Below, in pieces: positions 17,975-23,643 of a stretch of DNA of 32,000 bases. Each line of letters begins with the position of its first letter. Within the stretch, counting starts at the first letter, position 1. A program made the position numbers and the translations under genes. The notes under the pieces were generated by a model. The model was not told the DNA's origin, did no database searches, and saw only the letters and a list, made by a program, of their open reading frames with translations. Origin of the DNA: Nitrososphaera viennensis EN76 (GTDB taxonomy: Archaea; Thermoproteota; Nitrososphaeria; Nitrososphaerales; Nitrososphaeraceae); contig NZ_CP007536.1 in the NCBI RefSeq assembly GCF_000698785.1, forward strand, positions 840,001-872,000, given 5' to 3'.

Positions 17975-18226
17975 TTGCCAGACAGGGGCGACAACAGTGT
18001 CCAGATAAGCGGAGACAGGCTCAAGGCCCTCCTTGAAAAGGCACTTGCCGTGTTTGGCGACCCGGGCAAAGAGTACATAATGGAAGACCTTGTACGCCAC
18101 GGCATCAAGTTTGACAGCAGGTCGCATTACACGCTTGCGCAGGTACAGGACGCCCTTTCAATCCTTGGCGAGGACGGCGCGGCGCTCGTCATAGGCAGGG
18201 TGCGCAGGGAACTAGAGCGCGCCTAG
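17975..18226 (+). CDS. Small helical protein of unknown function (same family as 8011..8295)
   Basis: The 83-aa product starts at TTG. See the by-eye alignment under 8011..8295. Its 3' end overlaps the histone gene's 3' end by 4 nt (convergent). Confidence 0.45.
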   Translation: MPDRGDNSVQISGDRLKALLEKALAVFGDPGKEYIMEDLVRHGIKFDSRSHYTLAQVQDALSILGEDGAALVIGRVRRELERA

Positions 18227-18447
18227 AGCCGGATAACGTTCTTTGAAGCAAGCCGGATGTCCTCCGGTTTTATCGTCTTTCTGCCCGCGTGCATGGAGAG
18301 TTCTGCCGCCTGCTTGGCTATCCTCTCGGCCACCTCCTCCAGAACCTTCCGAAGCTCGTCTGCCGCGTCGTCGCTCACGCGCTCGGCGCCGGACTTTTTC
18401 ATTATGCGGTACATGGCCGCGAGGCCAAACTCTGGACCTGAAGACAC
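18223..18447 (-). CDS. Archaeal histone (HMf-type histone fold)
   Basis: FGLAAMYRIMKKSGAERVSDDAADELRKVLEEVAERIAKQAAELSMHAGRKTIKPEDIRLASK is near-canonical for the archaeal histone signature (AGAERVSDDA ... HAGRKTIK.EDI.LA). Confidence 0.9.
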   Translation of the reverse strand: MSSGPEFGLAAMYRIMKKSGAERVSDDAADELRKVLEEVAERIAKQAAELSMHAGRKTIKPEDIRLASKNVIRL

Positions 18448-18508: not shown

Positions 18509-19285
18509 ATGTTGCTGCTGTACGACGCGCATGTGCACCTGACAGACGGCGAGTACTCTGGCTACATCAGCCACGTGATTTCGTCGCTTTACGCGATGAA
18601 GATCGTCGCGTGCTCTGTCGCAGTCGACCTAGAGACCACGAAGAAGAGCTTTCGGCTGTTCAACGATCACAAAAAAGTCGTAAGGCAGTTTGTCGGCATC
18701 CACCCCGAGTTTGCCGCAAGGGAAGACCTCGACAAGTTCGTGCAGGTGGCAAGGGAGAACATGGCGTCAGTTGACGGCATCGGCGAGATAGGACTGGACG
18801 GCACGTACGAGGCTGAAAGGGGCGTCCCGTACGGGCGCCAAAAACAGGTGTTCTGCGCCATGCTTGCGCTTGCAGAATCCACAGGCAAGCCGGTGTCGAT
18901 ACACTCGCGGCGCTCCCTTGACGACATACTGGCCATCCTGCCGTCTTACCGGCTACAGGGCGCGCTCTTGCACTGGTTTGCAGGAAGCAAGAAGCAGCTT
19001 GCCAAGTCGATGGAGATGGGCCTGTACGTGTCGTACGGCCCGGCGCTTGTCTACTCTGAAGACAAGAAGGTGCTGCTAAAACACACGCAAAGAGATCGCT
19101 TTCTTGTAGAAACAGACGGGCCGGTCAGGTATTCGAGGTGCTTTGAGGGCAAGCCGGCGCTTCCCACGTCGTTTCTCCCAAGCGTCGTCGCCTCTGCGGC
19201 CGCAGTCCTCGGCGTCACGTACGGCGAGGCCGCAGAGATGACAGCCAGGAACACGGAAGCGTTCCTCGGGTCACAACAATTATAA
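18509..19285 (+). CDS. tatD: TatD-family metal-dependent hydrolase
   Basis: MLLLYDAHVHLTDGEY carries the HxH metal motif. Other matches are VGIHPEFA, IGEIGLDGTY, PVSIHSRRS, LLHWFAGS and FLVETDGP. I trimmed to the ATG at 18509. The upstream part of ORF 18257..19285 is antisense to the histone gene. Confidence 0.8.
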   Translation: MLLLYDAHVHLTDGEYSGYISHVISSLYAMKIVACSVAVDLETTKKSFRLFNDHKKVVRQFVGIHPEFAAREDLDKFVQVARENMASVDGIGEIGLDGTYEAERGVPYGRQKQVFCAMLALAESTGKPVSIHSRRSLDDILAILPSYRLQGALLHWFAGSKKQLAKSMEMGLYVSYGPALVYSEDKKVLLKHTQRDRFLVETDGPVRYSRCFEGKPALPTSFLPSVVASAAAVLGVTYGEAAEMTARNTEAFLGSQQL

Positions 19286-19313: not shown

Positions 19314-19565
19314 ATGAACCGAATAAAGCGCATTTCCGCCGAGCTCCTGCAGAAGCACCCTGACAAGTTTGGGCTCGAATTTGACGCTAACAAGAAGGCC
19401 CTCAACGAGGTGGCCATCGTCAAGTCCAAGGTCCTGAGGAACGAGCTTGCAGGCTATATAACTTCCCACCTCCGCAAAAAGGCGGCGCAGGAAAAGGCGT
19501 CCTCCGCGATGGCTGAAGGAGAGGAAGCGGAAGAAGAAGAGACTGAAGAAGAATCGACCGAGTAA
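19314..19565 (+). CDS. rps17e: Ribosomal protein eS17 (S17e)
   Basis: RIKRISAELLQKHPDKFGLEFDANKKALNEVAIVKSKVLRNELAGYITSHLRKK matches the S17e pattern (..KF..DF..NK........SK.LRN.IAGY.T). It has an acidic Glu-rich C-terminal tail. Confidence 0.85.
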   Translation: MNRIKRISAELLQKHPDKFGLEFDANKKALNEVAIVKSKVLRNELAGYITSHLRKKAAQEKASSAMAEGEEAEEEETEEESTE

Positions 19566-19573
19566 TAACAATA

Positions 19574-20356
19574 ATGATAAGAATCAGGCTGCTGGGCGGC
19601 GCAAAAAAAGCCGTCGGCAGGCCTTCTCTCGACCTCGACAGAAAGCAGGCGTCTGTTTCCGAGGTTTTGACGTTTTTGCAAGGCATCTCGCAGGAGCCAA
19701 GGCTTTTGCAGCCAGGCAACCTCATAATAGCGGTAAACGGCGTCGACTCGCAGGCACTGTCCGGCCCTGACACCATTGTCAGGGATGGCGATACGGTGAC
19801 AATAGTCACCGTGGTGCACGGCGGGAGCAGCAAAAAGAAGTGGAACGTCCTTGTAGCAGGCGTGCGCGTGATAGACAGCAGCAACAGGGACGCAGGCAAG
19901 CTGCTTGACAGGCTGCGGGCGGAAAACCCGGGCGTGATGGTGCAGGCGGCCGATGCGGCCGCAGTCTATGGGCGGGACCACGCGCTTGGCGCCCTCGACA
20001 TCGCCCTTGAAGCGATGGCAAGAAACGTCATGATTGCAAACAGGCCGGAAACAGAGGCGCTGCTGCGCCTTGCATGCACCGACCAGATTGCAGAGGCAAT
20101 GAAAAGGGCGCGCCTCAGGGAAGGCGCGGCAGGATGCTTTATCGCCTTTTCAACTGACGCGCAGGCACTGAAAAAATTTGGCGAGCAGATCTCGCAGGAA
20201 TTTGCACTTGACGACTCGGTCATTTCCCAGAGCGACGAAAAAAAGAAGACGCTTGCAAAAACAATCGGCATCGCCTCTCCAGAAGCCGATGACGACAACA
20301 GCGAATTCCTTGACTTGCTGCTAGAGCGCGCGGCGATACTGGTAAAGAAGAGCTAG
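19574..20356 (+). CDS. cgi121: Fusion protein: MoaD/ThiS-like ubiquitin-like beta-grasp domain (ending in HGG) plus KEOPS subunit Cgi121
   Basis: Residues 1-84 (MIRIRLLGGAKK...IVRDGDTVTIVTVVHGG) have the MoaD/ThiS/SAMP layout, with a Gly-Gly at residues 83-84 (nt 19820..19825). The remainder is VQAADAAAVYGRDHALGALDIALEAMARNVMIANRPETEALLRLACTDQIAEAMKRARL...CFIAF...LLLERAAILVKK. It aligns by eye with archaeal Cgi121 (recalled pattern ILNADVV..KKHVLHAINQA...MEILVRASGQRQIHEAIK). Confidence 0.75.
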   Translation: MIRIRLLGGAKKAVGRPSLDLDRKQASVSEVLTFLQGISQEPRLLQPGNLIIAVNGVDSQALSGPDTIVRDGDTVTIVTVVHGGSSKKKWNVLVAGVRVIDSSNRDAGKLLDRLRAENPGVMVQAADAAAVYGRDHALGALDIALEAMARNVMIANRPETEALLRLACTDQIAEAMKRARLREGAAGCFIAFSTDAQALKKFGEQISQEFALDDSVISQSDEKKKTLAKTIGIASPEADDDNSEFLDLLLERAAILVKKS

Positions 20357-20364
20357 CTGGCTAG

Positions 20365-20898
20365 TCAGTCTGCCGACTCGCGCTTTGCGACAACAGAGCT
20401 AAAGAACTTGTCCGGCGTTACCACAGAGACGCCGGCGTGCCTGCCCACGATTTCAACGAGCACTATCCAGGAAGGGTTTTCAAGGTCTACCTTGCGCTTG
20501 ACCTCCTGCGCGACATAGTCGATTATTTCGCGCGAGTGCAGGTCGCTGTGGCGCTTTTCAACCATTATCTTGAACGACGCGTCTTCAGGTATCCTTGCCG
20601 CCATCGACCCCACCGCGCCAGAAATGTCCTCAAGCTCGGCAGGCACGACCTTCTCTATCGGGAGAACCCGCATCACGTAGCGGATTTCCCACGGCTCTGA
20701 GGCCACAAGCCCCTTTAGTTTTTCAACAACTGTCACCGGATGAATCGACGTCTTGGCAAGTATGATTCCCGCGACCCGGGTTACCTCCGCCTCGGCGTCA
20801 GGGTCGCCAAAGGCGTCAAGCAGGTCGAGGATCTCGCCAAAAGCGTCTTCCTCGCGGAACCTCGGACTGGAGACTAGCAGGTTGAAGTCGTTCATCAT
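20365..20898 (-). CDS. THUMP domain-containing protein (putative tRNA-modification RNA-binding protein, Tan1-like)
   Basis: The 177-aa product has an N-terminal ferredoxin-like part and a C-terminal THUMP-like part (FKIMVEKRHSDLHSREIIDYVAQEV...VDLENPSWIVLVEIVGRHAGVSVV). Its start overlaps the tsaC stop (ATGA at 20895..20898). Confidence 0.65.
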   Translation of the reverse strand: MMNDFNLLVSSPRFREEDAFGEILDLLDAFGDPDAEAEVTRVAGIILAKTSIHPVTVVEKLKGLVASEPWEIRYVMRVLPIEKVVPAELEDISGAVGSMAARIPEDASFKIMVEKRHSDLHSREIIDYVAQEVKRKVDLENPSWIVLVEIVGRHAGVSVVTPDKFFSSVVAKRESAD

Positions 20899-21509
20899 GA
20901 TGATTGTCCAAGCACCTCTTCAATTTCGCCTGCGCTTATTGCGCCCTGCCGGATGATTCTGGGCGCGCCGGCAGTCGCGATGTCAATTATCGTGGATTCC
21001 ATTCCGATGAGCGCGCTCTTGTCAACGAGAAGGGCGTCATAGCCTTCCAGCGCCACTTCCTGCGCGCTCTTGGGCGCCGGCCTGCCGGAAGGGTTTGCGC
21101 TCGTCCCGACCAGGTACTTGCACATCGACAGCAGGTCCAGCGCGCACTTGTTTGCAGGAACGCGGACTGCAAGGCTGCGCCCGCCGGCCAGGACCCTGTC
21201 AGAGATCTTGTGGTCTGCAAGCGGCGCGACGATCGTAAGCGCCCCCGGCCAGAACTTGTCTGCAAGCGCCCTGCCGGCACTGCCCAGCTTTACTATTTTC
21301 TCCGCGTCCTCGGTGCTTGCCGCAAGCACGGGAAGGGGCTTGTCCTCCTGCCGCCCCTTTATCTCGAAAATCCGCGCAACGGAAGAGTCGCTGTACGGGT
21401 CGCAACCTATCCCGTAGACGGTGTCCGTCGGGAAAACAACCACCCCGCCTTCCTTGACTATTGACGCGCACCGGACCACTCCTTCCGGGCAGTCGAGGAT
21501 CTCTGTCAC
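20895..21509 (-). CDS. tsaC: L-threonylcarbamoyladenylate synthase, short YrdC/TsaC-type (Sua5 family without the C-terminal domain)
   Basis: [45 protein letters not shown] and SANPSGRP are YrdC-domain signatures. At 204 aa it has no Sua5-specific C-terminal domain. Confidence 0.85.
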
Positions 21510-21513
21510 GCCA

Positions 21514-23643
21514 CTATTGCAGCCTCACGATTGCTGCCACGTCTTTTGCGGCCGCCTTTTTCAGCTCGTCGCGCACAGCTTTTGCGACGTGCTCTGGTGC
21601 GGTAAGGCTTGAAAAGTCCATGAGTTTTACCCCGTCCAGTATGTGCACCTGCGGCGCAAGGCCCCTGCCGCTGTCCCGGTGCTCGTGCAAGATTTCATCG
21701 ACCCTGTCTGCCACGTCGTCAGGCGCGCCGTTGAATATCGCGGCATTGTCGACAGAGAGCCTGACGCGGCCGTACTTGTCAAGGACGAGCACCGGCTGCT
21801 TTTTTGATTTCAGGAACAGCTTTTTCTTGCTCATCTCGCAGGCAAATATGTGGTAGTTCTGCATGTCAAATATTCGCTGGACGCCCTCGCTGACGCCAAA
21901 CAGCTCGCAGGCAAGAACGTGCGCCTCGCTGTCTCCTATCTCCGGCGCGTTTGCGGTGCCGATGTCAAGCGACACGTTGCCCATCGCAGTCACGCGGAGG
22001 AGAGAGCGCTCGCTTATGAACTCTGACTGTATCGTTATCGACTCTGGCAGCGCGCCCCTTTCAAGGGCTGTTTTTTTCACCTGATCGGCAAGTTCGGTGA
22101 TGTCCTCCGGCCTCGGGTCGTTCACAGTCTTTTCGACTTCTTCGTGGATCATGGCCGCCGCCACGCCTATTGATGAAATGACCTCCGCGTGCTCGGCTAT
22201 CTTGTGCGACAGCTGCATCTTGCGTGCGACGTACGGAACCAGCACCGACGCGCCGCCTCCTCCCCCTACAAAGACGACCCTCTCGCGTTTTAGCTTGTAT
22301 TCCTTTACCATCGGCTCGACTATCTCCAGCACCTTCTTTGCAGAAATGTCAAGTATCATGCCTGCCGCCTGCTCCATTGTCGTGCCAAGCCGGGACGCAA
22401 GGATGGACAGCGCTATTCTTGCTGACTCGGTATTTGCGCGGGCATAGTCGCCTTCGGGCACAAGGCCGAGCGCGTTTGCCGCGCACGTGTTTGTTATCGC
22501 AAAGCGCCTGCCTCCGGCCTCTATTGCGACATAGTCTATTGGGTCGCCTTCTTTTGGGGAAAACGTGATTATCTGCCCGCCTTCAAGCTCGTCTGGCTGC
22601 GCAAAGCAAGAGTACGGCAGGCCGGCGATGTGCGCCGAGCGCGGCCCCACGTCTGTTATCTTGCGGCCGGACCAGCGCACGAGCGAGCCTCCGGCGACGC
22701 CGGCGACCCGGACGTCAAGGGATCGTATGCATGTGGGATGCTGCGTTATCGTGACGTACCGGATCTCTGGCCGGCCGTCCTTTATCACGCAGACGTTGGT
22801 GGACGTTCCGCCCACCTCTACAAAAACGCCGTCGATTACCCGCAAATGCAAAAGCGCCCCGGCGACGCTTGCCGCCGGCCCGGACAACACGGTGATTATG
22901 GGCTTGCTCTGAAATGTGCGCATGCTAGTCACGCCCCCGTCGCCCTTCATGATGAGCACCGGCGCGGTGATGCCCTCGTTGCGGACGGCAGACTCGACGA
23001 ACTTTGCGGTGCCGGTCGCCTTTGGCAGTATGCCGGCGTTGATAGCCGCGGTAAGCGTCCTTATCTCAAGGCCGTAGATGCCGGTCAGCTCGTGGCCGGC
23101 AGTCGCCGGCACGTCTGAATTTTGCATGACAAACAGCTCGTTTGACGGGTCGTCGACCCCGTACGCCTCGCTCACCACTATGACCTGCGCGCCTTCCCCC
23201 TTTAGCTCGGCGATGGCCTGCCTGACCTGGCCGTCTTCTAGGTATTTTGACGTGTCGAGGAACCGGTAGCAGGTGTGCAGGTACTTGTTTGGCGCAAGCT
23301 CGACGTTGCGTACGTTGGTGCGCTTTATCACGTTTGATTTTTCAAGGCCGACTCCCATGCCGACGATTCCGACTTTGGCAGTGTCGCCTTCCAGCAGCGC
23401 GTTCACGGCCTGCGTCGTGCTGTGCGAGATTAACTCGATTTCCGAGTTTGTGATGGCGTGCCTCTGCATCAGCGTCTTTAGCGCCTGGACGATTCCCGTG
23501 GAGACGCCCTCGCTTGAAGAGTGCGTCGTAGGCACAGTCACCTTGCCGATGATGCTTCCCTTGGCCATGTCAATTGCAACGGCCTTGGTGAACGTGCCCC
23601 CTACGTCGATGCCAACCCTGATCCTTCTCGCTGCTGCCTGCAT
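21514..23643 (-). CDS. Hydantoinase/oxoprolinase-family (HyuA-like, ASKHA fold) protein
   Basis: [19 protein letters not shown] is an ASKHA phosphate-1 type motif. Later motifs include [28 protein letters not shown] and [13 protein letters not shown]. The product is 709 aa and ends 4 nt before the tsaC start. Confidence 0.7.

Follow-up and report, generated by a model that had tools for sequence, protein, structure and literature searches.

The window analysed here (32,000 nucleotides of the genome of Nitrososphaera viennensis EN76, a cultured, soil ammonia-oxidising archaeon) contains a run of closely spaced genes on the forward strand. A TatD-family hydrolase (18509..19285, +; PF01026, E 7e-47, residues 90–337 of a longer listed ORF), the start of which is approximate as it was placed at the first methionine ahead of the domain, is followed by the gene for ribosomal protein eS17 (19314..19565, +; PF00833, E 5e-15). 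The eS17 stop is separated by 8 nt from the ATG of a single uninterrupted frame of 260 amino acids (19574..20356, +), as seen in the ORF listing and its translation. The encoded protein consists of an N-terminal ubiquitin-like (Ubl) domain (residues 1–84, 19574..19825, +) and a C-terminal Cgi121 domain (residues 90–260 and the TAG stop, 19841..20356, +) joined by the linker SSKKK (residues 85–89, 19826..19840, +). The Ubl domain ends ...VTIVTVVHGG, and its last three residues, His82-Gly83-Gly84, are encoded by CAC GGC GGG (19817..19825, +) and form the proposed cleavage and activation site. The two glycine codons (GGC GGG, 19820..19825) are then followed by SSKKK-WNVLVAGV, in which the first Cgi121 strand comes after the linker.

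Two genes converge on this frame from the opposite strand. The first encodes a THUMP-domain protein (20365..20898, −; PF02926, E 8e-10), and its stop lies 8 nt from that of Cgi121. The second encodes Sua5/TsaC, the threonylcarbamoyl-AMP synthase (20895..21509, −; PF01300, E 2e-48), and its stop and the start of THUMP overlap in the ATGA at 20895..20898. The first-pass annotation had placed the fused gene 8 nt behind eS17 and had described a t6A/tRNA-modification island formed with convergent TsaC/Sua5 and THUMP genes; the spacer, read directly, and the two Pfam matches bear out both statements. A 709-residue hydantoinase/oxoprolinase-like gene ends 4 nt before Sua5/TsaC (window positions 20895–23643, −), so that it, Sua5/TsaC and THUMP form a string of three tightly coupled genes that faces Cgi121. 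The order TatD-eS17-Ubl recurs at six other loci (L042, L049, L050, L046, L068 and L072), and a THUMP gene adjacent to Cgi121 at five (L042, L043, L049, L051 and L070). Upstream of TatD lies an archaeal histone-like gene of 74 residues (18223–18447, −). As a similar histone-like ORF adjoins TatD-eS17-Ubl in two distant relatives (L050 and L046), the conserved block is larger than the fusion and eS17.

Both the Ubl–Cgi121 fusion and its linkage to eS17 have been known since 2010. Makarova and Koonin (2010; Archaea 2010:710303, PMC2948915) found the fusion in all thaumarchaeal genomes then available, noted that in Nitrosopumilus maritimus the gene apparently shares a transcript with S17, recorded a Ubl–E1 fusion in the same organisms and also gave an eS17 linkage for the Urm1 of Sulfolobales. 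The window gene has the same architecture, lineage and eS17 neighbour and is a member of this family with no structural difference from it. The 2010 study drew on few genomes and was without split forms, conservation of the Gly-Gly or a proposal of proteolytic release; what is added here is the likeness to Urm1, the invariance of the HGG, the split genes, the approximately five changes of state and the inventory of enzymes. Literature searches for the fusion, its cleavage and any proteomic or biochemical evidence returned nothing beyond that paper.

The N-terminal domain matches the Pfam ThiS family (PF02597) over residues 5–84 (E 7e-10 to 2e-9, 38–40 bits against a cut-off of 22.5), and the match reaches the last position of the profile exactly at Gly84. 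The isolated domain just clears the cut-off of the Urm1 profile (PF09138; 22.5 bits against 21.8), which the whole protein, with 18.8 bits, does not reach; the NCBIfam Urm1_like model (NF053661) gives 22 bits, far short of its cut-off of 70. A profile built from 22 free-standing orthologues and the window's own Ubl domain, searched against the PDB, ranks Urm1 structures first (E 3e-6 to 4e-4), its top matches being Trypanosoma brucei 2k9x, 4idi, Sulfolobus 4wwm and the yeast and mouse Urm1 proteins; bacterial MoaD (1fm0) scores about 0.03 with the same profile. On these profile comparisons the Ubl is provisionally classed as Urm1-like, being probably nearer to Urm1 than to either MoaD or ThiS in the strict sense, and the ...HGG end that it has in common with Urm1 fits this assignment. 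The description of a MoaD/ThiS-type Ubl in the first-pass annotation thus stands as regards the superfamily, which PF02597 covers, and gives way to Urm1 as the probable nearest relative. The Urm1 proteins of Sulfolobus (4wwm) and of eukaryotes (2k9x, 2pko/2qjl, 1xo3) similarly have a beta-grasp fold ending ...HGG; however, they are free-standing whereas the Ubl is fused here, and the similarity is modest.

The C-terminal domain is recognized by the NCBIfam Cgi121 equivalog model (NF011465, E 1e-22 to 3.5e-22, 79–81 bits against a cut-off of 40) and by Pfam CGI-121 (PF08617, residues 106–252, E 4e-9 to 1e-8, 35.7–37.2 bits against a cut-off of 25). As a single-sequence search of the PDB with this half gave only a weak match (1zd0, E 0.02), a fold search was needed to confirm the domain. 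Foldseek aligns it with archaeal, yeast and human Cgi121, the leading match being 7kjt_H (E 1.5e-8, TM 0.75), together with 8up5, 3enh, 4xah and 3enp. The C-terminal 170 residues therefore share the fold of archaeal Cgi121 (Methanocaldococcus jannaschii; 7kjt, 8up5, 3enh; TM about 0.75), with the difference that the latter starts directly at its first strand and has no N-terminal Ubl.

An AlphaFold2 model calculated from an alignment of 100 fused homologues (mean pLDDT 93.6) contains a confident beta-grasp domain (residues 1–80) and a confident alpha/beta domain (residues 91–260), with pLDDT values of 93–98 for the Ubl domain and of about 96 for the second. Foldseek comparison of the N-terminal domain with MoaD, Urm1 and SAMP1 gives TM values of 0.63–0.82. 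The two halves thus both have the folds that had been ascribed to them from the letters of the sequence, namely a complete beta-grasp Ubl closing at Gly-Gly in residues 1–84 and, reached through SSKKK, a full-length Cgi121 domain, an agreement far beyond chance. The only block of low confidence in the model is formed by residues 81–90 (mean pLDDT 62), which comprise the HGG tail and the linker. The pTM of 0.70 suggests that the two domains, as modelled, are not rigidly packed against each other.

Conservation is concentrated at the end of the Ubl domain. His82-Gly83-Gly84 is invariant in all 118 full-length close homologues, while positions 85–91, the linker included, are highly variable. Across 100 fused proteins with identities down to 24%, only 7 of the 260 positions are invariant (G8, N55, D73, H82, G83, G84 and E251). 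After clustering at 50% identity the HGG is found in 43 of 44 fused representatives, the sole one without it being P0173 (244 aa), which reads ...LSTLHCS; judging from this sequence, the Ubl of that lineage may have turned into a permanent, non-activatable domain. Some 20 further representatives are free proteins of 83–85 residues that end exactly at the HGG, and the Ubl residues G8, N55, D73 and HGG are conserved in the free and fused sets alike.

In a 251-genome sample of the class, all 146 genomes sampled from the sister family carry the two-domain frame, which the closest relatives have as well; the 146 include two unpublished genomes (G231 and G132), without which the sister family is fused in 144 of 144. 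In 17 related genomes, by contrast with the fused arrangement, Ubl and Cgi121 are separate genes, and neither G231 nor G132 contributes to this evidence. The split Ubls stop exactly at the HGG in 13 of the 17 and 1, 2, 4 or 5 residues later in the other four. Four species of the same genus share a common junction, ...CAC GGT GGC TGA, with Cgi121 in the +1 frame and its GTG start overlapping the Gly codons. The genus also contains other breaks, one species reading HGG-SRRQQ-stop and another HGG-stop. Other genera of the family have HGG-stop or HGGS-stop, and other families HGG-stop, HGGCL-stop, a four-residue tail or a gene of 198 residues between the two halves. The last arrangement is found in a deep-branching genome (G005), where the intervening gene (L050:1739-2335, +) lies between a free Ubl (ITHGG-stop) and Cgi121; the search for JAMM genes found none there, the genome being 94% complete.

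In one genus (genome G120, L046 and L051) the locus is broken exactly between the halves, leaving TatD-eS17-Ubl and Cgi121-THUMP-Sua5 185 kb apart, which shows that the locus is made up of two separately conserved gene groups. In the rest of the phylum the Ubl orthologue is free and ends HGG-stop, and it frequently follows TatD and eS17 in that order or has Sua5 as a neighbour; Sua5/TsaC adjoins the free Ubl at several loci of other Thermoproteota (L078-L083 and L085). The survey of domain architecture thus gives a fused form in the sister family, a split form in 17 genomes and a free form elsewhere in the phylum. Because the free HGG-terminated Ubl is the outgroup state, the free form is, on this sequence comparison, ancestral. 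A maximum-likelihood gene tree was built from 34 loci, 13 others being left out as tblastn missed their divergent Cgi121 half. Mapping the fused or split label onto this tree needs five changes (bootstrap 5–95% range 4–5), of which the supported branches force at least three. This repeated fusion and fission at one Gly-Gly represents a clean natural case of genes toggling between an operon and a fusion state.

The genome itself is one contig of 2.53 Mb, 99.9% complete, and was searched for the partners that either half would require. Profiles for ThiS, Urm1, archaeal MoaD, ubiquitin and the orthologue set itself detect two Ubls, both of which are N-terminal fusions with an internal Gly-Gly. 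These five profiles gave no free Ubl in the complete genome, although a very divergent one could escape them. In the second fusion, ...AVAGG joins the Ubl to the sole E1 of the genome, a UbaA/MoeB-like protein (443 aa). The Ubl–E1 gene lies outside the window (L003:1177-2508, −; about 1,739,300–1,740,630 of contig C1); its Ubl is of the MoaD/SAMP1 type and its end, ...ILPAVAGG, runs straight into the E1. A ThrC-like PLP enzyme (373 aa) is encoded directly upstream, and the pair suggests an amino-acid or cofactor pathway that depends on a Ubl thiocarboxylate and for which processing at Gly-Gly would again be required.

The Cgi121 of the fusion is the sole Cgi121 match in the genome, and its KEOPS partners Kae1 and Pcc1 are present. 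A role of the Ubl as MoaD was rejected, since a search of the complete genome yielded no MoaE. One PP-loop protein of 311 residues, the candidate tRNA thiolase, resembles NcsA/TtuA: it aligns with the whole of the NcsA model NF047749 (E 5e-60, though short of the strict equivalog cut-off) and also carries the TtuA LIM N-domain. Finally, alongside the single E1, the search for processing enzymes yielded two JAMM/MPN+ genes with intact HxHx7SxxD motifs, at about 296.8 kb and 250.4 kb of the genome, which are candidates for that role. The nearest match of one is the JAMM1 chain of PDB 5lda/5ld9 (E 1e-14), of which 5lda also holds SAMP2, and that of the other is AfJAMM. Neither gene (L005:1537-1872, +; L006:1423-1881, −) has Ubl-related neighbours; one is flanked by the genes for a large cupredoxin-like membrane protein and for aspartyl-tRNA synthetase, and the other adjoins a transposase-like gene. 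JAMM genes occur in all 186 sampled genomes of the order, G231 and G132 included. Since they are universal in fused and split genomes alike, JAMM presence was rejected as a marker of the fused state.

Taken as a whole, the sequence evidence makes it probable, with considerable room for doubt, that the fusion is a precursor that is cut after Gly84. The chain of 27.8 kDa would be translated, probably from a co-transcript with eS17, as a product in which the Ubl C-terminus is blocked. A Gly-Gly-specific protease, most likely one of the two JAMM/MPN+ metalloproteases, would then cut after Gly84 and so release an Urm1-like Ubl of 8.8 kDa, its ...HGG carboxyl end now free, together with a 19.0-kDa Cgi121 of normal size. 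The latter product would have 176 residues, matching the Cgi121 frames of about 175 residues in the split species. Freed Cgi121 would join Kae1, Bud32 and Pcc1 in KEOPS for the synthesis of t6A37, while the freed Ubl would be adenylated and thiocarboxylated by the single UbaA/MoeB-type E1. From what is known of the family, the Ubl may then serve the NcsA-like enzyme in 2-thiolation of the tRNA wobble uridine and, possibly, be conjugated to proteins. The fusion would ensure an equimolar, co-regulated supply for two pathways of anticodon-loop modification.

The first-pass annotation left two fates open, cleavage and an intact chain, and the comparative evidence favours the former. Several observations argue for cleavage. 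An invariant HGG is followed by seven freely varying residues, the same Ubl has a free HGG end in sister species, and the model loses confidence only in the HGG tail and linker that connect its two well-predicted domains. In addition, as both Ubls are fused with an internal Gly-Gly, the E1 would have no free-ended substrate unless one of the fusions is cut. If the chain is a precursor, fused and separate genes give rise to identical pairs of mature proteins, which would explain how the junction could be made or broken some five times at one and the same Gly-Gly. Experimental precedent is provided by HvJAMM1 of Haloferax, which cleaves SAMP1-MoaE, a linear fusion, to give active parts (PMC4443979), and by DRJAMM of Deinococcus, which cuts a natural MoaD-MoaE fusion (PMC8832034). 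These fusions similarly consist of an N-terminal Ubl joined via Gly-Gly to a partner, and JAMM releases two functional proteins from them. Their partner is the large subunit of molybdopterin synthase, however, in place of the Cgi121 seen here, and cleavage that was demonstrated in those systems is for the present chain a prediction.

Other points count against cleavage. The fusion is stable throughout the 146 genomes of one family, and the covalent link could itself be useful. With a linker of five residues, access of the protease has to be assumed, and the universal occurrence of JAMM in fused and split lineages is compatible with processing yet does not discriminate. Some NcsA/TtuA-type enzymes use sulfide directly, and if the thiolase does so here a free Ubl may not be strictly required. 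P0173, with HCS for HGG, indicates that a non-cleavable fusion can persist.

The same facts bear on the alternative that the fusion is permanent and the Ubl a built-in module of Cgi121 and KEOPS, for example a docking surface for the E1, NcsA or another partner, which would physically link the t6A and s2U machineries and leave no free carboxyl end. Regulation of KEOPS or coordinated functioning was raised as a possibility by Makarova and Koonin (2010; PMC2948915), and the short linker, the fusion in every sampled genome of one large family and the one representative that keeps the fusion though the Gly-Gly is lost are all in keeping with it. No reason is known, however, why a domain that stays attached should require an invariant His-Gly-Gly at its end, and the model shows no rigid interdomain packing. 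The free Ubls of sister species end exactly at the HGG, in one genus 185 kb from Cgi121, and with both Ubls blocked the conserved E1 would be left without a substrate. A permanent module is consequently regarded as unlikely, albeit a serious competitor.

A partial or regulated processing, in which the intact chain and the cut products have separate roles and JAMM activity sets their ratio, as has been proposed for Haloferax SAMP1-MoaE, is considerably less probable as a separate explanation. It draws on the observation that HvJAMM1 reactivates an inactive covalent form of SAMP1-MoaE (PMC4443979), and on the retention of two different JAMM paralogues in nearly all genomes of the order. Sequence data cannot tell it apart from constitutive cleavage, however, and it is better seen as a refinement of the precursor reading than as a true alternative to it. 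Least of all is the frame likely to be an artefact in which a sequencing or assembly error merged two genes by losing a stop or adding a frameshift after the Gly-Gly: although relatives of the same genus do have a stop or frame change exactly there, the identical 260-residue protein occurs on 41 contigs, the closest relatives (83–85% identity) have the same fusion, the assembly consists of one finished contig, homopolymers at the junction go no further than AAAAA, and 100 other fused proteins can be aligned with the frame in register.

For the precursor reading, an analogy is offered by eukaryotes, where UBA52 and RPS27A encode ubiquitin in frame ahead of a ribosomal protein from which it is released at Gly-Gly. 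The comparison is apt in that here too a Ubl precedes a translation-related protein in frame. It differs in that the partner is a tRNA-modification subunit, eS17 being only the upstream gene, and in that neither the modifier nor the processing enzymes are of the same family as in eukaryotes. It is somewhat more probable than its opposite that the Urm1-like half is released by JAMM and that the gene is a prokaryotic counterpart of the eukaryotic ubiquitin-fusion genes, a single product coupling the sulfur carrier of wobble-uridine thiolation to the tRNA-recruiting subunit of t6A37 synthesis. Were the chain cut, the ammonia-oxidising archaea would make their only Urm1-type modifier by processing of a fusion protein, as eukaryotes do for ubiquitin, and a defined housekeeping substrate would be at hand for the JAMM enzymes of organisms that are abundant worldwide. 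As read from the sequence, the junction-spanning peptide of the fused chain is DGDTVTIVTVVHGGSSK, and the C-terminal peptide of the Ubl expected if the chain is cut after Gly84 is DGDTVTIVTVVHGG.
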